NCBI GenBank assembly: GCA_964507125.1
Contig: CAZDOT010000001.1
Location: forward strand, 47,559-111,558
Direction of reading: 5' to 3'
DNA: 64,000 nt
Origin: an uncultured Chitinophagales bacterium
GTDB taxonomy: Bacteria > Bacteroidota > Bacteroidia > Chitinophagales > JADIYW01
Below, one piece after another: positions 26,574-47,937 of this stretch (positions are counted from its first letter, which is position 1; every line of letters starts with the position of its first letter). The position numbers and the translations under genes were made by a program. A model generated the notes under the pieces. That model made no database searches. It was not told the origin of the DNA and saw nothing but the letters and a program-made list of their open reading frames with translations.

Positions 26574-27974
26574 TTATTTCAACCCACCGATCATATCTTC
26601 CGGTTTTACCCACTCATCAAATTGTTTTGCTGTTAGATAGCCCAATTTAATGGCAGTTTCCTTCAAAGTAGCATTGTTTTTATGTGCAGTTTGAGCAATC
26701 TCAGCAGCTTTATAGTAGCCTATTTTTGTATTCAATGCTGTAACTAACATCAATGAATTATCTAAATTCTTTTTAATGTTATCGTGCAATGGTTGAATTC
26801 CGGTAGCACATTTATCATTAAATGATACGCATACATCACCAATTAAACGTGCACTGTGCAAGAAATTATAAATCATTACCGGTTTAAATACATTCAATTC
26901 AAAATGTCCATTGCAACCACCCACGTTTATTGCCACATCGTTTCCTAATACTTGAGCCGCCACCATTGTCATAGCTTCGCATTGTGTTGGGTTTACTTTT
27001 CCGGGCATAATAGATGAACCCGGTTCGTTGTCCGGAATATGTATTTCACCAATACCACATCTTGGTCCAGAAGAAAGCATACGAATATCATTTCCTATTT
27101 TCATCAATGAAACCGCCACTGTTTTTAATGCACCATGTGCTTCCACAATAGCATCGTGTGCCGCTAAAGATTCAAATTTATTATCGGCTGTAACAAATGG
27201 TAAGCCTGTTAGCGTAGCAATTTCTTTAGCAACATTTTTAGCATATCCTTTTGGTGTGTTAATGCCTGTTCCTACTGCTGTTCCGCCCAATGCTAATTCG
27301 GAAAGATGAGCTAATGAATTTTCAATTGCTTTTAATCCATGATCTAATTGAGATACATATCCTGAAAATTCTTGTCCTAATGTTAATGGTGTTGCATCCA
27401 TAAAATGGGTACGACCAATTTTCACAATTTTAGAAAATTCTTTAGATTTTTTGGCTAATGTATTTCTTAATTTTTTTATTCCCGGAATTGTTTTTTCTAT
27501 TAAGATGCTGTACGCTGCAATATGCATCGCTGTTGGGAATGTATCATTTGATGATTGAGATTTATTGACATCGTCATTTGGATTAATCAACTTTTTCTCG
27601 TCGGTTAATTGTCCGCCTAATAATACATGACCTCTATAAGCAATTACTTCATTTACGTTCATGTTGGATTGCGTACCAGAGCCAGTTTGCCAAACTACTA
27701 ATGGAAATTGGTCGTCTAATTTTCCGGCTAAAATTTCGTCACATACTATACCAATTGTTTCGCATTTTTGTTTTTCTAATACTTTTGCTTTGTAATTAGT
27801 AATAGCGGCTGCTTTCTTTAAGTAGGCAAATGCACGAATAATTTCTTTCGGCATTTTATTAATGTCTTGAGCAATTTGAAAATTCTCGATAGAACGTTGT
27901 GTTTGTGCACCATAGTACGCATCAATAGGAACATTTACTTTTCCCATGGTGTCTTTTTCAATTCTGTATTGCAT
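26574..27974 (-). CDS. fumC: Class II fumarate hydratase
   Basis: Fumarate lyase signature [15 protein letters not shown], plus [12 protein letters not shown] and QSSND motifs. Confidence 0.95.
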
Positions 27975-28012: not shown

Positions 28013-28792
28013 TTATTTTCCTTGAAAATCCGGTTTACGTTTTTCTAAAAAAGCTTGCACACCTTCTTTTACATCTGCTGTATTAAAGATGGTACCGAAT
28101 GCATTTACTTCCGTTGCAAAACCATCTACGCCATCTTTATAATATGCATTTACACATTCAATTACTTTTGCAATGGCAACCGGGCCTTTTGTTCCAATTT
28201 TATTTAAGATAGATTTTGCTTTTTCTAATGCAGCATTTTTATCTGCTTCCACATAATTCACCAAGCCTAAGTTTAATGCCGTTTGTGCATCTATCATATC
28301 AGCAGTTAAATGCAATTCCAATGCTTTTGCTTTTCCAATATATTGCACCAAACGTTGTGTTCCACCGTAGCCTGCAATAATTCCTAAATTTACTTCCGGC
28401 TGACCAAATTTTGCATTCGGTGTTGCAATACGTAAATGGCAAGCCATTGACAACTCACAGCCACCACCTAATGCAAATCCATTTACGACAGCAATTACCG
28501 GAATCGGCATTTGTTCTATTGCAAAAAAGATATCGTGACCACGTTGTGCTAATGCTTTAGCTTGTTGTGCATCTAAGCCTTGGAACTCTGAAATATCAGC
28601 ACCGGCAACAAAGGCTTTATCACCTGCACCAACTAATATTATACCTTTAATTTTTTCATTTTTTGCTTGCTCAAATGCAGCTTTAATATCTGTTAATGTA
28701 TCTGCATTTAAAGCGTTCAGTTTATCTGCACGATTGATAGTAATTGTTAGAATTTCTTCTTCCAAATTCCACAATAAATTTTTGAATTCCAT
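28013..28792 (-). CDS. Enoyl-CoA hydratase (crotonase family)
   Basis: Crotonase fold motifs: ITINRADKLNAL, FVAGADISEF, and VNGFALGGGCELSMACHLRIA. It starts 9 nt after the nuoN stop. Confidence 0.85.
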   Translation of the reverse strand: MEFKNLLWNLEEEILTITINRADKLNALNADTLTDIKAAFEQAKNEKIKGIILVGAGDKAFVAGADISEFQGLDAQQAKALAQRGHDIFFAIEQMPIPVIAVVNGFALGGGCELSMACHLRIATPNAKFGQPEVNLGIIAGYGGTQRLVQYIGKAKALELHLTADMIDAQTALNLGLVNYVEADKNAALEKAKSILNKIGTKGPVAIAKVIECVNAYYKDGVDGFATEVNAFGTIFNTADVKEGVQAFLEKRKPDFQGK

Positions 28793-31758: not shown

Positions 31759-31998
31759 TTAAATCACAAACAAACACACAATTTTATCCAACAACAAACA
31801 CGCTGATTTTGCAATAAGATGATTATACGCATCTACCAAAAAGCCGGAAATATACGTATCAACTTTACCACTTAAAGCTAAATAAGCAACTTGTGTAGCA
31901 CCAATAAATAGTGCAATTTTTTGTACCGATTTTGCATTAAATGTATGCAACACCGGAATGGCTACCACCAATAAGGTCATTAAAAAAATCAACATCAT
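31759..31998 (-). CDS. 79-codon hydrophobic ORF filling the nuoL-nuoM gap (hypothetical membrane peptide or gene remnant)
   Basis: The ATG lies 3 nt after the nuoL stop codon, and the ORF occupies almost the whole 272-bp gap. The N-terminal helix is MMLIFLMTLLVVAIPVL. There is no homology evidence. Confidence 0.35.
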   Translation of the reverse strand: MMLIFLMTLLVVAIPVLHTFNAKSVQKIALFIGATQVAYLALSGKVDTYISGFLVDAYNHLIAKSACLLLDKIVCLFVI

Positions 31999-32001
31999 AG
32001 T

Positions 32002-33903
32002 TTATAATTTTAATATTAAAAATAACAGTAAAACAATCATGCTAAACACCATCGCACCTACATAAAAACCTAAACCACCGGTTTGTGTTAATCGCAATAA
32101 CTGACTCCAATTTACTACTGAATTTCCAATTCCATTTACCACTGCATCAATACCGGAACGCTCTATATAATCACGTAGGAAACCTGAAATTTTATTTAAT
32201 GGTTTTACGATAACCGCTTCATAAATTTCATCTATATAATACTTGTAATAAATAACTTCTTTTAATAATGGCATTGCTGCTTCATCACTTTGCGGTATCG
32301 ATTTTTTAGTAATAAAAATATTTCTTGCCAAGATGATTACAACTGCAATTAGCACTAAAGTTATTGCCATTAATAGCAACTCTGTATTTAGATGCATCTC
32401 AACATTGTTTGGTTTTACGGCATTTGCCAAGAAACTATCTAACCAATGATGGATGTGCAATTCATGACCTAATGCGTGTGGAAACCCAATAAAACCGCCT
32501 ATTACAGACAAAACTGCTAATATAGACAATGGAATAGTCATGCTTTTAGGTGATTCGTGTACATGATTTTTCACAATATCATTCGCTCTTGTTTCTCCAT
32601 AAAACGTTAAGAATAACAAACGGAACATATAGAAAACCGTCAATAAAGAAACCAATAATGCCAATACAAACATGATTTTATTGACAGCAAATATTTCTGC
32701 TAACATTTGATCTTTAGAGAAGAAACCGGCAAATGGCGGAATACCGGAAATAGCGATAGTAGCAATTAAAAATGTGTAAAATGTGATCGGCATTTTCTTT
32801 CTCAAGCCGCCCATATTTCTGATGTCTTGGTCGCCACTCATTCCGTGAATAACGCTTCCGGCACCTAAGAATAATAATGCTTTAAAAAAGGCGTGTGTAA
32901 CAACGTGAAAAACACCAGCTGAAAATGCACCACAACCCAATGCACAAAATATTAAACCTAATTGTGATACCGTTGAATAGGCTAAAACTTTTTTAATATC
33001 ATTTTGGAATAATGCGATGGATGCCGATAATAATGCCGTTGCAATACCGATGATTGCAATAGCATGCATTGTGTAAGTAGATAAAGAAAACAAGGCACTA
33101 CAACGTGCAACTAAATAAATGCCGGCTGTTACCATTGTAGCTGCATGTATTAATGCAGAAACCGGCGTTGGGCCTGCCATTGCATCGGGTAACCACGTAA
33201 ATAATGGAATTTGTGCCGACTTACCTACTGCACCAATAAATAATAAGATAGTAATCCAAGTTATTAATTTTCCATCCACTACTACATTGCCTACTTGTGC
33301 AAAAACTTCGTGGTAATTGATGCTTCCAAATACACCAAAAATCAAGATAGTTCCTAACAAGAAACCAAAATCACCGATACGGTTCATTACAAATGCTTTT
33401 TTGGCTGCACTTGCATAATTGGAATTTCTAAACCAAAATCCGATTAATAAATAGGAACACAAACCAACACCTTCCCAACCGATAAACATCAATAAGAAAT
33501 TATCACCCAACACTAACAACAACATAAAGAAAACAAACAGATTTAAGTAAGAAAAATATCTGTTGTAATCTTTTTCATCGTGCATATATCCGGTTGAATA
33601 AACGTGAATTAAAAATCCGACACCGGTAATTACTAAGGTAAATAAGATGGAAAGTGCATCTACTAAAAAAGAAAAATCTGCATGGAACTCACCTACTTTA
33701 AACCATGTAAACAACGGTACTGTTACTGCTTGCGGATGAGAAATTTGTCCGGCAAAAATGAGTAATGCCACCACGAAAGAAGCTAAAACGCTTCCGGGTG
33801 CTAAGTATGTTGTGATGCTTTTAGGCAATCGGCTACCGGATAAAGATATTATCAAGAAGCTGATTAATGGAAATAAAGGAATGAGATATATGAGATGTTC
33901 CAT
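32002..33903 (-). CDS. nuoL: NADH-quinone oxidoreductase subunit L
   Basis: 633 aa. Motifs include GWEGVGLCSYLLIGFW, GKSAQIPLFTWLPDAMAGPTPVSALIHAATMVTAG, and a C-terminal lateral-helix region. Confidence 0.92.
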   Translation of the reverse strand: MEHLIYLIPLFPLISFLIISLSGSRLPKSITTYLAPGSVLASFVVALLIFAGQISHPQAVTVPLFTWFKVGEFHADFSFLVDALSILFTLVITGVGFLIHVYSTGYMHDEKDYNRYFSYLNLFVFFMLLLVLGDNFLLMFIGWEGVGLCSYLLIGFWFRNSNYASAAKKAFVMNRIGDFGFLLGTILIFGVFGSINYHEVFAQVGNVVVDGKLITWITILLFIGAVGKSAQIPLFTWLPDAMAGPTPVSALIHAATMVTAGIYLVARCSALFSLSTYTMHAIAIIGIATALLSASIALFQNDIKKVLAYSTVSQLGLIFCALGCGAFSAGVFHVVTHAFFKALLFLGAGSVIHGMSGDQDIRNMGGLRKKMPITFYTFLIATIAISGIPPFAGFFSKDQMLAEIFAVNKIMFVLALLVSLLTVFYMFRLLFLTFYGETRANDIVKNHVHESPKSMTIPLSILAVLSVIGGFIGFPHALGHELHIHHWLDSFLANAVKPNNVEMHLNTELLLMAITLVLIAVVIILARNIFITKKSIPQSDEAAMPLLKEVIYYKYYIDEIYEAVIVKPLNKISGFLRDYIERSGIDAVVNGIGNSVVNWSQLLRLTQTGGLGFYVGAMVFSMIVLLLFLILKL

Positions 33904-33911
33904 TATTTAGT

Positions 33912-34793
33912 TTAATTTTTAATTTCTAACAATTTAAAGAACTCATCTAATTTCGGCATAATGATGATTTCTGTTCTTCTGTTGATGGCTTTATTTACTT
34001 TAGAATCATTCGGAACTTTTGTGTTGTACTCTGAGCGACCACCTGCAATAATGCGAGAAGGATCAACGCCATAGCTTTTTTGTAAAGCACGTGCGATAGA
34101 GGTTGCACGCATTACACTTAAATCCCAATTATCGATTAAACAATTCGTAGCAATCGGTACATTATCGGTGTTGCCTTCAATCAACACATCAAATGTTTTG
34201 TAATCGTTGATTACTTTTGCAATTTTTTCTAAAACAGAACCCGCTTTTGAGGAAATTTGTGCACTACCGGATTTATACAACATATTATCTGACAAAGAAA
34301 TTAATACCACACCTTTATCTACTTTCACATTTACATCGGTATCGTTTACATCCGCCAAAGAGCGTTTTAAGTTCATCACCAATACTAAATTCACGGAATC
34401 TTTCGTACGAATTTGTGCATTTAACAACGAGATTTCTCCACGTTGTTTATCTATTGTTTCTAATGATTGTTTGATGCTGGCTGCACCTTCTTTGCTAATT
34501 ACGGATAAGGCTGATAATTGATCTAACAATTTTACATTCGCATTTTTTTGATAGTCGATTTCTTTTGATAATTCATCCACTTTTGCTTTTGCTTTAGATA
34601 GTTCATCTTGCAATGCGGCATATTCAGAAGATTTTATTCCAAATTTTTTCTCACATTCTGCTAAATCTGATGTGGTTTGTCTTAACGACTGCTCTACTTT
34701 GTCTTTTTCTGTTTGTGTAGCTTGGAATTTTTTCTTTGTTACACAAGATGAAAGTGCCACAACACACATTACGATTAATCCAATTTTTTTCAT
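33912..34793 (-). CDS. OmpA/MotB-domain lipoprotein with an N-terminal coiled coil, embedded between nuoK and nuoL
   Basis: Start set at ATG 34793 (MKKIGLIVMCVVALSSC lipobox). A coiled-coil segment follows. The C-terminal peptidoglycan-binding OmpA-like domain reads IEGNTDNVPI...NWDLSVMRATSIARAL...NRRTEIII. Gaps are 26 nt to nuoK and 8 nt to nuoL. Confidence 0.8.
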   Translation of the reverse strand: MKKIGLIVMCVVALSSCVTKKKFQATQTEKDKVEQSLRQTTSDLAECEKKFGIKSSEYAALQDELSKAKAKVDELSKEIDYQKNANVKLLDQLSALSVISKEGAASIKQSLETIDKQRGEISLLNAQIRTKDSVNLVLVMNLKRSLADVNDTDVNVKVDKGVVLISLSDNMLYKSGSAQISSKAGSVLEKIAKVINDYKTFDVLIEGNTDNVPIATNCLIDNWDLSVMRATSIARALQKSYGVDPSRIIAGGRSEYNTKVPNDSKVNKAINRRTEIIIMPKLDEFFKLLEIKN

Positions 34794-34819
34794 TGTTATA
34801 AATTTACTATTCAAAATAA

Positions 34820-35140
34820 TTACCACTTCAATCTATTTAAAGTATCAATATCGGTTGATTTGGTATTACGGAAAATCATCATTAAAATTGCTAACCCTAC
34901 AGAAACTTCGGCTGCGGCAACCACCATCACAAAAAAGACAAAAACTTGTCCGCCGGTATCGCCTAAATATCTGGAAAATGCGACCATTAATAAATTGACC
35001 GCATTCAGCATAAGCTCAATACACATAAAAATGATGATGGCATTTCGTCTAAACAACACACCTAAAACACCGATACAAAACAAGGTAATACTTAGAAAAA
35101 TATACCATTGAATTGGGATGCCTATTATTACTTCTTTCAT
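34820..35140 (-). CDS. nuoK: NADH-quinone oxidoreductase subunit K
   Basis: 106 aa with three TM helices. [11 protein letters not shown] and [12 protein letters not shown] motifs are typical of NuoK. Confidence 0.9.
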
Positions 35141-38776: not shown

Positions 38777-40255
38777 TTAATGATACTGATAATGATTTAA
38801 ATCAGAATGTTCGCTGAATTTCTTGGACTTTGCAACACTCAAAGGACGGAGAAAAGGTGCATCACCAAACTTGTCGAAATAATAAGAATTAGACGTGGAA
38901 CAATTATTATTAAAAAACACGGTATTCTCTTGATATTTTAAGATGTATTTAAAATATTTATCGTGTTCGGCTTGTTTAATTTCTACTTGTTGAACTTTTC
39001 TTTTTCGCTTCTCTTTCAACACTCGAATAATATGTGACATCTGAATTTCTATCATATTAAACCACGACAATCCGGAAGCACTATACGGCCCGAAAATGAT
39101 AAAGAAATTGGGAAAATTCGGTATGGCACAACCTTGATAGGCTTGCAATCTATTTTGCCCCCAATAAGCACCTAATTCCATTTTGTTTTTTCCATATAAT
39201 TCATAGTTGAGATAGTTGCTATTTTTCATTACATGAAAACCAGTTGCTGCAATCAGTACATCTATTTTTCTTTCTATACCATCATTGGTTACAATTCCAT
39301 TTGCCGAAATTTCTTGTATGGGTGATGTTACTAATTCTACATTTTTTCTATTAAAAGATGAAAGATATGTATTGGAAAAACTTGGCCGTTTACATCCGAA
39401 ACCATATTTAGGCGTGAGTTGCTTACGTATGTTTTCATCTTTTACTTGAATTTTTAAAAATTGCAAACAAAATTGCTCTAACGATTTAACTAGAATGGGT
39501 AATTGCTTGTAGTTCACCACTGCCGTAACCAATACGGTTTCCATTATTTTATCTGTTACTTTTCGAATGCCATTTTGGGTAAATGGTAATTTTTGAAATA
39601 GTGTTTTAACAGATGTTGGAATCGTTGTATCCGGCTTCGGCATAATCCAAATTGGTGTACGTTGATATACGAATAATTTCTGAACTTCCGGTGCAATGTT
39701 CGGCACAATTTGTACGCTGGAAGCACCGGTTCCAATGATAGCAACTTTTTTATTTTTTAGTTGTAAATCTTGTTTCCAACGTGCTGTATGCACCAATTCT
39801 CCTTTGAATTTTTCAATGCCTTTTATCTCCGGAAGTTTAGGATCTGTTAATGCACCGGTTGCTGAGATGATGACATTACAAGTAAATGTTTTTCCATTTT
39901 TTGCAATGATAGTCCAAGTGGAATTTTGCTCGTTAAAACTTGCTTTTTCTACATCTACATTAAATCGAAAATTTTCTCTAGTGTCGTATTTATCTACGCA
40001 ATGTTGTGCATATTGATACAACTCATCTCCTTTGGCAAACACCCGATTCCAATTGGGATATTGCTCAAAAGAATAAGAATAGGTGAAAGAAGTAATATCA
40101 ACGGCAATTCCGGGATATTGATTATCTCGCCAAGTGCCTCCAATATCCGATGCTCTTTCTAAAACTAAAAAAGAGAAACCAGCTTTTTTTAATTCGATGG
40201 CAGCACCAATGCCGGAAAATCCGGAACCAATGATTATCACTTCAGCATCTATCAT
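38777..40255 (-). CDS. Flavin-dependent monooxygenase, Baeyer-Villiger (type I BVMO)/FMO-like, inserted between nuoF and nuoG
   Basis: FAD fold IIIGSGFSGIGAA and the GGTWRDNQYPG motif. The BVMO fingerprint FxGxxxHxxxW is present as FKGELVHTARW. A second Rossmann motif is VAIIGTGASSVQ. Confidence 0.8.
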   Translation of the reverse strand: MIDAEVIIIGSGFSGIGAAIELKKAGFSFLVLERASDIGGTWRDNQYPGIAVDITSFTYSYSFEQYPNWNRVFAKGDELYQYAQHCVDKYDTRENFRFNVDVEKASFNEQNSTWTIIAKNGKTFTCNVIISATGALTDPKLPEIKGIEKFKGELVHTARWKQDLQLKNKKVAIIGTGASSVQIVPNIAPEVQKLFVYQRTPIWIMPKPDTTIPTSVKTLFQKLPFTQNGIRKVTDKIMETVLVTAVVNYKQLPILVKSLEQFCLQFLKIQVKDENIRKQLTPKYGFGCKRPSFSNTYLSSFNRKNVELVTSPIQEISANGIVTNDGIERKIDVLIAATGFHVMKNSNYLNYELYGKNKMELGAYWGQNRLQAYQGCAIPNFPNFFIIFGPYSASGLSWFNMIEIQMSHIIRVLKEKRKRKVQQVEIKQAEHDKYFKYILKYQENTVFFNNNCSTSNSYYFDKFGDAPFLRPLSVAKSKKFSEHSDLNHYQYH

Positions 40256-45396: not shown

Positions 45397-47574
45397 ATGG
45401 TAACGGAGCAATTAGATGTAAAGCAACAATTAGCAACTGAGTATGCATTAAAAACATTTGTAAATGTATTTGTTACCGGGAAAGCCGGAACGGGAAAGAC
45501 CACTTTTCTTAGAAATGTACAGAAAAATACGCTTAAAAAAACGGCTGTGGCTGCACCAACCGGCGTGGCTGCCATTAATGCCGGTGGAATGACATTGCAT
45601 TCGCTTTTCCAATTACCACTAATGCCCTTTTTACCAACCAAGCAACGTGTACCGGATAATTTTGCGAATCAACAATCTTTATTTGAGAAATTCAGATTTA
45701 GCAAAAGTAAAATTCAACTTATCCGTGAATTGGAACTTCTTATTATAGATGAAGTCAGTATGTTGCGTTGCGACACACTCGACTGCATTGACACAACACT
45801 TCGAACATTACGCAAAAATCAACAAGAAGCTTTTGGTGGCCTGCAAGTTTTGTTTATCGGAGATTTATTTCAATTACCACCGATTGTAAAAGAGGAAGAA
45901 TGGTATTATCTGAAAGAATATTACGATTCACCTTTCTTTTTTCATGCACAAGTGCTTAAAGAAACCAGCTTTGTAAATATAGAGTTTGATAAAATCTATC
46001 GTCAAAATGAAGAAAAATTCATTCGCTTACTCAACAAAGTACGCAATAATGAAATGAATGAAGATGATTTTGAACGATTAAACGAACGATATGAACCCGA
46101 AGCGTTGAGTAGCTTAGAAGAATACATTACTTTAACGACACACAATTATAAAGCCGATAAAATCAACCAAGCTCAGTTACAAAAATTAGAAGATGAAATA
46201 ACGGAATACTCCGCAATTGTTTCCGGAGATTTTTCGGAAAGTTCTTTTCCTACGGAACAAACATTGCAACTCAAAAGAGGTGCGCAAGTTATGTTTATTA
46301 AAAACGATAGCAATCCGGAGAAGAAATATTTTAACGGCAAATTAGCAAGCATCAAAAATTTTACGAATGATGGCATTGTTGTACAATTTTTAGATGATGG
46401 TGAAGAATATACATTAGGAACAGAAACTTGGGAAAACATACGATATGCTTACAATCCGGCAACCGATAAAATTGAAGAAGAAAAATTAGGCAGTTTTACG
46501 CAATTTCCGATTCGATTAGCATGGGCAATCACCATACATAAAAGTCAAGGCTTAACATTTGACAAAGCCGTTATTGATGCCGGACAAGCATTTGCACCCG
46601 GACAAGTGTATGTAGCTTTAAGTAGATGCACCACTTTACAAGGTTTATATTTATTGACACAAATCCATCCAAATGCCATTAAAAGTGATGAACGCATTAT
46701 TGAATACACTGAAAATAATTTAGATGGCGAAACCGAGATGCTTCGAAAATTGCCTTTCTATAAAATTGAATTTGCCAAAGCACAATTAATTAAAGCATTT
46801 GATTGGCAAAAAACGGTAGATCAATTTGTTGATTTTATTCATTTTACGGAAGAAAAAAAATTACATCAAAAAGAAGATGTATTAGATAGATTTAAACGAA
46901 TAGAAAAAGAACTTAGAGACATAGAGCAAACCGGAAAAAAATTCTCGGTACAATTGCAAGACATCTTAAACAAAATTGACCAACCGGAAAATCAAAATAT
47001 ATTGCAGGAGCGTGTATTAAAATCGATACGTTATTTTGGTGAAAAATTAGCACAACAAATCATCCAACCTTTGCATACCTATATTATAGAAAATCAAAAT
47101 AAAAAAGGAATGAAAGGATTTTTGAAACAAGCTAATGAAATGGAACAAACATTATTGACGAAGTTGCATCAAATAGAGCAATTGCAATTTGGCGATGCCG
47201 CTTTTTACAACGGTAAATCTTTTTTTACACAAACACATGAAGACATTAGCAATAAGCTAACTCAAAAAGCGGTGAAAGGCGATTCACACAGAGAAAGTTT
47301 ACAACTTTATAAATCCGGAAAAAATATTCAAGAAATTGCTACAGAACGCAACTTAGCGATTTCTACGGTAGAATCTCATTTAGCTGAATTCATTACCAGT
47401 GGCGAAATTCCCATTACTGATTTTTTAGACACTACTGCATTAACTGATATCCAAACTGCAATTCAACAATTAAATACAACACAATTATCACCCTTAAAAT
47501 CTCATTTTGGAGAACGGTTTTCATTTGGACAAATACGCATGGCAATTGCTGCTTCAAATTCTAATAAAAGTTAA
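45397..47574 (+). CDS. Pif1/RecD-family (SF1B) DNA helicase with a C-terminal helix-turn-helix domain
   Basis: Walker A VTGKAGTGKTT and Walker B LLIIDEVSM. Other SF1B motifs are GDLFQLPPI, ITIHKSQGLT and VALSRC. The C-terminal roughly 100 aa form an HTH-like region (NIQEIATERNLAISTVESHL). Confidence 0.8.
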   Translation: MVTEQLDVKQQLATEYALKTFVNVFVTGKAGTGKTTFLRNVQKNTLKKTAVAAPTGVAAINAGGMTLHSLFQLPLMPFLPTKQRVPDNFANQQSLFEKFRFSKSKIQLIRELELLIIDEVSMLRCDTLDCIDTTLRTLRKNQQEAFGGLQVLFIGDLFQLPPIVKEEEWYYLKEYYDSPFFFHAQVLKETSFVNIEFDKIYRQNEEKFIRLLNKVRNNEMNEDDFERLNERYEPEALSSLEEYITLTTHNYKADKINQAQLQKLEDEITEYSAIVSGDFSESSFPTEQTLQLKRGAQVMFIKNDSNPEKKYFNGKLASIKNFTNDGIVVQFLDDGEEYTLGTETWENIRYAYNPATDKIEEEKLGSFTQFPIRLAWAITIHKSQGLTFDKAVIDAGQAFAPGQVYVALSRCTTLQGLYLLTQIHPNAIKSDERIIEYTENNLDGETEMLRKLPFYKIEFAKAQLIKAFDWQKTVDQFVDFIHFTEEKKLHQKEDVLDRFKRIEKELRDIEQTGKKFSVQLQDILNKIDQPENQNILQERVLKSIRYFGEKLAQQIIQPLHTYIIENQNKKGMKGFLKQANEMEQTLLTKLHQIEQLQFGDAAFYNGKSFFTQTHEDISNKLTQKAVKGDSHRESLQLYKSGKNIQEIATERNLAISTVESHLAEFITSGEIPITDFLDTTALTDIQTAIQQLNTTQLSPLKSHFGERFSFGQIRMAIAASNSNKS

Positions 47575-47625: not shown

Positions 47626-47937
47626 GTGAAATATTTGGTTTTCATTTTTAGTATTTACTTGTTAGCACTTTCCGTAGTGCCTTGTAGTGATATTAAAAAT
47701 GAGTGTTCCAATCAAACAGCAGCAGAAAAACAACACCATCACAATCAAGATGCAGATGACAACTGCACACCATTTTGTACGTGTACTTGCTGTATAAGTG
47801 GTATTACAATTGCAAACCCACAACATTTAGTTGCTGATAATTTTTACACAACAACTACAATAGAAAAAATACCAACTATCAATACACAGTTTATTTCTTC
47901 CTTTGAAGGAAATATTTGGCAACCGCCTAAAATTTAA
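47626..47937 (+). CDS. Small Cys/His-rich membrane-anchored protein (DUF6660-like) upstream of czcA
   Basis: GTG start. N-terminal helix ending in ...LSVVPCSD, a His run (QHHHNQD), the cysteine cluster CTPFCTCTCC, and a C-terminal IWQPPKI. I recall this pattern from the small ORFs that precede Bacteroidota czcA genes. The family name is from memory and not verified. Confidence 0.55.
   Translation: MKYLVFIFSIYLLALSVVPCSDIKNECSNQTAAEKQHHHNQDADDNCTPFCTCTCCISGITIANPQHLVADNFYTTTTIEKIPTINTQFISSFEGNIWQPPKI

Follow-up and report, generated by a model that had tools for sequence, protein, structure and literature searches.

In a 64-kb stretch of DNA from an uncultured Chitinophagales bacterium (the window, meaning the whole stretch that was analysed), a complete lipoprotein gene lies inside the operon encoding respiratory Complex I, between nuoK and nuoL. 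The favoured explanation, held with some reserve, is a single old relocation of a gene for a periplasmic membrane-to-wall tether into the nuoK-nuoL gap, where it would be expressed from the nuo message and would act in the manner of Pal or of Braun's lipoprotein (Lpp). What is new is the presence of such a gene inside the nuo operon, whereas the family to which it belongs is already known as a common Bacteroidota envelope family; the event was probably an undocumented but ordinary relocation of one of its members.

The lipoprotein gene and its surroundings

The genes of the nuo operon, all on the minus strand, are nuoA-B-C-D-E-F, an FMO-like gene, nuoG-H-I-J-K, the lipoprotein gene, nuoL, a 79-aa ORF, nuoM and nuoN in this sequence, with an enoyl-CoA hydratase gene and fumC downstream of nuoN. 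The features of the lipoprotein gene and of its immediate neighbours are the following:

34820 to 35140, minus strand: nuoK, upstream neighbour (Pfam Oxidored_q2, E 7e-33)
34794 to 34819, minus strand: 26-nt spacer from the nuoK stop to the lipoprotein start, without terminator or promoter motif
33912 to 34793, minus strand: lipoprotein coding sequence, DUF8429 + OmpA_C family, 293 aa, ATG start and TAA stop (open reading frame; Pfam OmpA, E 1.3e-15)
34743 to 34793, minus strand: signal peptide and lipobox, residues 1-17, MKKIGLIVMCVVALSS-C, with Cys17 as the predicted lipidation site (sequence; alignment)
34359 to 34736, minus strand: predicted proline-free helical stalk, residues 20-145, with helices 20-97 and 101-145 (AlphaFold2, periodicity)
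33927 to 34334, minus strand: MotB/PomB-type OmpA-like peptidoglycan-binding domain, residues 154-289 (Pfam, profile, Foldseek, invariant columns)
33904 to 33911, minus strand: 8-nt spacer from the lipoprotein stop to the nuoL start
32002 to 33903, minus strand: nuoL, downstream neighbour (Pfam Proton_antipo_N and Proton_antipo_M)

These coordinates agree with the initial annotation of this DNA, which had described a complete lipoprotein gene separated by 26 and 8 nt from nuoK and nuoL. The ATG is regarded as the real start because the aligned homologues begin at this MK/MR position; a GTG at 34826, which came from a mechanical ORF list and would make the gene overlap nuoK, was rejected since all 31 aligned homologues start at MK or MR. 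Mis-assembly at 33904-33911 or 34794-34819, envisaged at the outset, was likewise discarded, as identical junctions are found in more than 25 independent contigs (Logan, JGI, ENA and NCBI assemblies). Across the clade that carries the gene in this position, the spacer between nuoK and the lipoprotein gene measures 2-50 nt, with a 7-nt overlap of both genes in one locus (L121), and that between the lipoprotein gene and nuoL 2-67 nt.

As regards transcription, the terminator scan gave no hairpin from the end of nuoK to the beginning of nuoL, and sigma-70-like matches stayed at the chance level of shuffled sequences. Moreover, from 36476 to 31499, a stretch that includes 1.6 kb upstream, the coding strand contains no TAnnTTTG, the -7 promoter motif of Bacteroidetes. 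The three scans thus confirm at both junctions the earlier reading that neither a terminator nor a promoter box is present, and a promoter or terminator belonging to the lipoprotein gene itself was rejected on the same grounds. With spacers as tight as these and no promoter or terminator signals, it is reasonable to suppose that the gene is co-transcribed with nuoK and nuoL; read-through would in any case be needed, since nuoL, nuoM and nuoN lie downstream. Nevertheless, expression in proportion to the membrane arm of Complex I, which the initial annotation had thought probable, goes too far, as equal stoichiometry does not follow from co-transcription.

Other genes have also entered this operon. 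An FMO-like monooxygenase gene lies between nuoF and nuoG in one sub-clade, the window included, a bAvd-like four-helix-bundle gene between nuoH and nuoI in another, and a small hydrophobic ORF between nuoL and nuoM in most clade members. Furthermore, the enoyl-CoA hydratase gene, which starts 9 nt after nuoN in the window, directly follows nuoN in every clade locus reaching that far, and in several clade lineages the operon is split between nuoF and nuoG. Since several unrelated insertions and breaks occur within the clade, the operon tolerates passengers. An Rfam scan of the 64-kb window returned no matches.

Architecture of the lipoprotein

The signal peptide is made up of MKK and a hydrophobic core, followed by L-S-S-C. 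The lipobox A-L-S-S-C, already recognised in the initial annotation, is present, and at least 90% of the sequences in alignment A1 (32 sequences, namely the query and 31 homologues) share its Cys17. For the region that follows, AlphaFold2 run with the 32-sequence alignment predicted the helices 20-97 and 101-145, with a mean pLDDT of 79 for the whole model and block means of 85-93 over residues 21-90 of the stalk, and no proline occurs in residues 20-145. Hydrophobicity in residues 20-97 peaks at a period of 3.5 residues, as in a coiled coil, 23 of the 36 a/d positions being hydrophobic, while no such peak was found in residues 101-145. Of the coiled coil of about 120 aa proposed beforehand, then, the extent holds good, with some 125 proline-free residues predicted to be helical, but heptad periodicity was seen for residues 20-97 only.

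The C-terminal part matches PF00691 (OmpA) over residues 173-272 with 57.9 bits, against a gathering cut-off of 27.2, which substantiates the OmpA-like peptidoglycan-binding domain that had been claimed, and the AlphaFold2 model shows an alpha/beta fold from about residue 154 to 289 (pLDDT of about 72-92 over residues 151-280). When the family profile was compared with PDB sequences, MotB (6ysf) ranked first with an E-value of 4.9e-36, followed by MotS, PomB, TssL and YiaD; Foldseek searches with the predicted model gave MotS, PomB, TssL, YiaD and PA0833 with TM-scores of 0.84-0.89 on the target, the entries 9ljm and 3wpw reaching 0.88-0.89. In OmpA-like domains the motif Asp and Arg contact the peptide stem of peptidoglycan. 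All 32 sequences share T209, D210, N222 and S226, and at least 90% of them have R229 and A230; R272-R273 also fall within the domain. With regard to the two motifs that had been read from the sequence, RRTEI is indeed found at residues 272-276, while the one given as NxxDLSxxRA is actually N222-W-D-L-S-V-M-R-A, with one residue between N and D instead of two. Both the sequence and the model suggest that the lipoprotein would bind peptidoglycan non-covalently by means of this domain.

The family in the Bacteroidota

When 1.84 billion cluster representatives (50%-identity clusters) were searched exhaustively, 193 representatives of the family came out at E<1e-30, with the best values down to 4e-75, most of them of about 280-310 aa and matching from end to end. 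The collinear full-length alignment A1 covers identities of 33-87% over the whole length, and the features held in common are the lipobox Cys, the helical stalk, a central LSV.S..GAE.I.KSL segment and the MotB-type domain. The N-terminal part corresponds to DUF8429 (PF28533), a recent addition to Pfam; the assignment comes from precomputed matches in close relatives. In the automatic annotation of JGI the family appears as 'chemotaxis protein MotB', a label that reflects domain similarity only, and elsewhere as 'OmpA family protein'. The family is uncharacterised, and a search of the literature on DUF8429 retrieved no paper mentioning it.

Scanning one genome per GTDB species gave 80 loci among the matches listed, each from a different assembly, whose homologues show 39-58% identity to the window lipoprotein. 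These loci belong to Spirosomaceae, Cytophagaceae, Saprospiraceae, Lewinellaceae, Flavobacteriaceae, Weeksellaceae, Sphingobacteriaceae, Chitinophagaceae and other taxa, the orders including Cytophagales, Flavobacteriales and Sphingobacteriales. In none of the 80 was a nuo gene found within 6 kb of the homologue, and no neighbourhood, that of tol included, was conserved among them; the largest neighbour cluster comprised 8 of the 80 loci, and atpD lay about 3 kb upstream in only 4. Since nuo genes are not found nearby and these loci have no neighbourhood in common, the family evidently works without linkage to Complex I, and it is a stand-alone envelope gene in most Bacteroidota. Members of the in-operon clade were absent from the genome-scan matches listed.

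A single clade with the gene in the nuo operon

Every homologue of at least 68% identity that could be placed lies between nuoK and nuoL, in more than 25 loci from independent assemblies. The exact window protein occurs on two Logan contigs with the same placement, which is also that of the homologues with 97% (P0001, NCBI MAG GCA_963169645.1), 74% (P0115, on three contigs), 73% (P0118) and 72% identity (P0116), as well as of the lipoprotein genes in 16 metagenome loci. In addition, two loci reached independently through NuoK homologues (P0361 and P0369) both carry the insertion, the NuoK search having listed 120 matches, all at least 80% identical. In the same scans, nuo genes were never found near homologues at or below 58% identity. 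When 101 sequences were placed in a tree, the copies inside the operon formed one bipartition, recovered in 200 of 200 neighbour-joining bootstraps, with at least 73% identity inside the clade and at most 57% to anything outside. A single insertion event is deduced, because the in-operon copies make up one clade.

The comparison of nuo operons across the Bacteroidota that the initial annotation had advised therefore reveals a lineage-specific placement, found in every close relative examined, all members of one Chitinophagales clade, and in 0 of the 80 other family-bearing loci. It is neither universal nor documented, as no published description of a lipoprotein gene between nuoK and nuoL was found in the searchable literature. 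At NCBI the source MAGs are named 'Chitinophagales', 'Saprospirales' or 'Sphingobacteriales bacterium'; one clade locus comes from a record named activated-sludge metagenome. Protein identities show how deep the clade is. The window and one clade locus (L083) share 62% identity in NuoL and 48% in NuoM and NuoN, against 74% in the lipoprotein; over the clade as a whole, NuoM and NuoN drop as low as 48%, but the lipoprotein never below 72%.

Composition and selection

With a GC content of 0.337 and a GC3 of 0.276, the lipoprotein gene has the same composition as the nuo genes, so that the GC3 comparison with the flanking genes, also advised beforehand, ended in a match. Against the 97%-identical relative its dN/dS is 0.042 at a dS of 0.44, the nuo genes giving values of 0.005-0.062. 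A chance ORF was rejected on account of this ratio, and recent horizontal transfer on account of GC, GC3 and dS, all of which match those of the nuo genes. Since both composition and dN/dS agree with those of core nuo genes, the gene is considered functional and long resident.

In all clade members the N-terminal coil (residues 18-100) is exactly 83 aa long, whereas outside the clade its length varies from 51 to 94 aa. The ratio of coil identity to identity in the peptidoglycan-binding domain is 0.86 in the clade against 0.67 in out-of-operon pairs matched on domain identity (Mann-Whitney p of about 0.002, phylogenetically non-overlapping pairs), a contrast that comprises about 6 independent in-clade pairs of somewhat lower divergence than the comparison pairs. 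Furthermore, at 19 positions all clade members have a residue that is rare (<10%) outside, and 12 of these positions belong to the helical stalk. Constraint at the DNA level was rejected as the source of coil conservation: the dS of the coil is normal, and because synonymous divergence there is normal, the constraint would act on the protein. These sequence comparisons thus give a hint of added protein-level constraint on the N-terminal coil in this clade.

Interpretation and alternatives

According to the explanation favoured here, the lipoprotein would leave the cytoplasm through Sec and receive its lipid at Cys17. As this residue is not followed by an acidic signal for surface export, the protein presumably stays facing the periplasm. 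The stalk, a probably oligomeric helical region of some 125 residues, would project from the membrane, spanning up to about 18 nm if fully extended, and the C-terminal MotB-type OmpA-like domain would hold the peptidoglycan non-covalently, the whole serving as a tether or spacer of the Pal or Lpp type between membrane and cell wall. The gene would have entered the nuoK-nuoL gap once, in the common ancestor of an uncultured clade of Chitinophagales, and, having neither promoter nor terminator of its own, would since then have been transcribed in the nuo (or nuoG-N) message. Such a place in a constitutive operon would ensure steady, respiration-linked expression, which does not make the protein part of Complex I, and it probably has no physical contact with the enzyme. 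Between the neutral insertion and the functional link weighed in the initial annotation, the evidence tilts towards a housekeeping envelope gene having moved into an operon that harbours several other unrelated insertions in this clade. Some observations count against a simple relocation. The position has been kept over a deep divergence, more than a transient neutral insertion predicts, and both the identity gap and the conserved, fixed-length N-terminal coil have to be accounted for.

A closer relation with the enzyme would exist if, in this lineage, the lipoprotein served the membrane arm as an accessory or assembly factor, either as a periplasmic strut that fixes or orients Complex I with respect to the cell wall or as a stabiliser of the antiporter-like modules NuoK/L/M/N, with a placement that secured co-expression and co-assembly. 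This is thought unlikely. In its favour, the nuoK-nuoL placement is kept in every clade member examined, the tight spacers, some of 2 nt or overlapping, suggest translational coupling, conservation of the lipoprotein equals that of the core subunits, and the fixed-length coil is conserved beyond expectation, as are the 19 clade-fixed residues, 12 of them in the stalk, a further point in its favour. Nevertheless, the family is found in most aerobic Bacteroidota without nuo linkage, other clearly unrelated genes ride in the same operon, and the coil contrast is drawn from about 6 in-clade pairs of slightly different divergence. Moreover, Pfam and NCBIfam scans of the lipoprotein gave no match to any Complex I family and thus no homology to a core subunit, no precedent was found in the literature, and we know of no supernumerary Complex I subunit to which the protein is similar. 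It is likewise improbable that Complex I of this clade has taken the protein on as an accessory subunit or anchor on the periplasmic side of its membrane arm, tying the proton pump to the cell wall. The long stem separating the in-operon clade (at most 57% identity outside, at least 73% inside) and the clade-specific fixed residues would also suit a duplicated paralogue, with an ordinary copy elsewhere in the genome and an in-operon copy specialised for a task not necessarily related to Complex I, for instance respiration-tied envelope remodelling. Such a duplication is again improbable, since the 64-kb window holds no second copy of the family and the 80 best genome matches come from 80 assemblies, as fits a mostly single-copy family, while the identity gap may reflect sparse sampling of sister lineages among the matches listed.

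The initial annotation had also contemplated a MotB-like function related to the proton-motive force. On such a reading, a stator subunit similar to MotB, PomB or ZorB would use the proton-motive force generated by Complex I. The best matches of the C-terminal domain are in fact the periplasmic domains of MotB, MotS and PomB, weak matches to ZorB models were obtained, and the JGI label points the same way. However, a transmembrane helix bearing a conserved Asp is missing, residues 1-16 being a cleavable signal peptide that ends in the lipobox, and no MotA, PomA, ExbB or ZorA-like partner is adjacent. The NCBIfam matches cover only residues 92-282 or thereabouts, and the equivalog scores remain far below their cut-offs (MotD 107.4 against 283, MotB 78.4 against 301 and MotS 74.2 against 264 bits). 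ZorB of the Zorya system was rejected as well, as only its peptidoglycan-binding part matches (E 7e-14) and a ZorA-like neighbour is missing. The idea is therefore contradicted and hardly credible; the lipoprotein is neither a stator nor a defence gene product.

Significance

If the placement serves expression only, it constitutes a clean and datable case of a housekeeping envelope gene moved into an essential respiratory operon. The nuo operon of this clade would then be an unusually passenger-tolerant one, knowledge of which helps the annotation of abundant wastewater and freshwater MAGs. In either case, the DUF8429 + OmpA family makes a promising candidate when outer-membrane tethers of the Pal or Lpp type are sought in the Bacteroidota, where tethering is poorly understood. 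Should a functional link be true, bacterial Complex I could gain periplasmic accessory proteins and respiration would be tied to cell-wall architecture, for which mitochondrial Complex I, with its acquired intermembrane-space subunits, offers a parallel. To our knowledge, no periplasmic-side accessory of a bacterial Complex I has been described before, nor any link of Complex I with an envelope scaffold, so that the protein would be the first example of both.

Comparison with known systems

The lipoprotein has the same full-length architecture as the DUF8429 + OmpA_C family of the Bacteroidota (33-87% identity), from which this clade alone departs in having the gene in the nuo operon, a conserved coil of fixed length and the 19 clade-fixed residues. 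Its best structural and sequence matches, over residues 139-281 approximately, are the periplasmic domains of MotB, PomB, MotS and TssL, and its domain is closer to those of MotB, PomB and TssL than to those of OmpA or OprF. Unlike the stator B subunits, it has neither a transmembrane Asp helix nor a plug or a MotA partner; its one hydrophobic stretch, residues 5-16, contains no Asp.

Unidentified reading frames (URFs) are present in the nqo cluster of Paracoccus denitrificans, and the lipoprotein gene is similar to these URFs and to supernumerary genes in that a non-core gene is embedded in, and presumably co-transcribed with, a Complex I operon. We know of no supernumerary Complex I subunit that is a peptidoglycan-binding lipoprotein. 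Non-core subunits do have a precedent in bacterial Complex I, since the P. denitrificans enzyme contains three supernumerary subunits, PdNUMM, PdNUYM and PdN7BM, with mitochondrial homologues (PMC8115037).

With Pal of the Tol-Pal system the lipoprotein shares the lipidated N-terminus, the C-terminal OmpA-like domain and the expected role of a membrane-to-wall tether. Pal, however, has a short flexible linker in place of the helical stalk of about 125 residues, binds TolB and is encoded in the tol-pal cluster, whereas the lipoprotein gene is flanked by nuoK and nuoL in all clade loci; Pal is absent from the best 25 of the 36 NCBIfam matches. Lpp is a coiled-coil lipoprotein that spaces the membrane from the peptidoglycan. 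It has no sequence relationship with the lipoprotein described here, being a protein of 58 aa attached covalently through its C-terminal Lys instead of a non-covalent OmpA-like domain, but by analogy both may be seen as lipoproteins whose coiled-coil stalk would set the distance between membrane and peptidoglycan.

Additional genes within the nuo operon

Besides the lipoprotein gene, the nuo operon of the window, which lies on the minus strand, holds two further genes in its gaps:

31759-31998, minus strand, hydrophobic ORF of 79 aa in the nuoL/nuoM gap
38777-40255, minus strand, FMO-like (Baeyer-Villiger-type) flavin monooxygenase gene, 492 aa, in the nuoF/nuoG gap

The 79-aa ORF, separated from nuoL by a 3-nt spacer, gave no match in Pfam or NCBIfam. 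Most loci of the clade (Chitinophagales relatives with a peptidoglycan-binding lipoprotein gene between nuoK and nuoL) have ORFs of 70–79 aa in the same slot, which is not so occupied in L083-L085. Since the dN/dS of these small ORFs is 0.10–0.37, the 79-aa ORF is probably a genuine small membrane protein.

The FMO-like gene, with a dN/dS of 0.036, is flanked by larger spacers (136 and 195 nt); 58 nt 5' of its start is the Bacteroidetes-type -7 promoter motif TAnnTTTG. The gene is confined to the sub-clade of the window (loci L001, L114 and L092). In L114, nuoF appears as two ORFs:

L114 3053-4396 (GCA_963169645.1), nuoF as ORFs of 181 and 228 aa

This split call suggests a frameshift or assembly error in the GCA_963169645.1 record.

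Other branches of the clade differ in arrangement:

L083 1-3983 (also in L084 and L085), polymorphic-toxin-like gene upstream of nuoG-N, ≥2940 aa, encoding MuF_C, ART-PolyVal and LPD domains
L118 4275-4676 and L119 625-1026, 23S_rRNA_IVP/bAvd-type four-helix-bundle gene, 133 aa, in the nuoH/nuoI gap

In L083, of the lineage whose lipoprotein is 74% identical to that of the window, as well as in L084 and L085, no nuoA-F genes lie ahead of the nuoG-N cluster; nuoG likewise lacks an upstream nuoF in L118 and L120. The nuoH/nuoI insertion belongs to another branch (L118, L119).

Flanks of the operon

28013-28792, minus strand, enoyl-CoA hydratase gene, starting 9 nt past nuoN
26574-27974, minus strand, fumC, downstream of the former
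45397-47574, plus strand, PIF1-like helicase gene, 725 aa, with a C-terminal HTH_40 domain
47626-47937, plus strand, DUF6660 protein, Cys/His-rich, 103 aa
48048-52406, plus strand, AcrB/CzcA-type RND permease and TolC-like fusion ORF, 1452 aa

The enoyl-CoA hydratase gene, which directly follows nuoN in all clade loci extending that far and is itself followed by fumC in several, appears to be a fixed addition at the operon's 3' end. At the other end, nuoA and the helicase gene are divergently transcribed. The fusion ORF, just 3' of the DUF6660 gene, combines ACR_tran (residues 5-1028) with OEP, the TolC-like outer-membrane efflux domain (residues 1267-1450), an odd topology in which an outer-membrane factor is joined to an inner-membrane pump.
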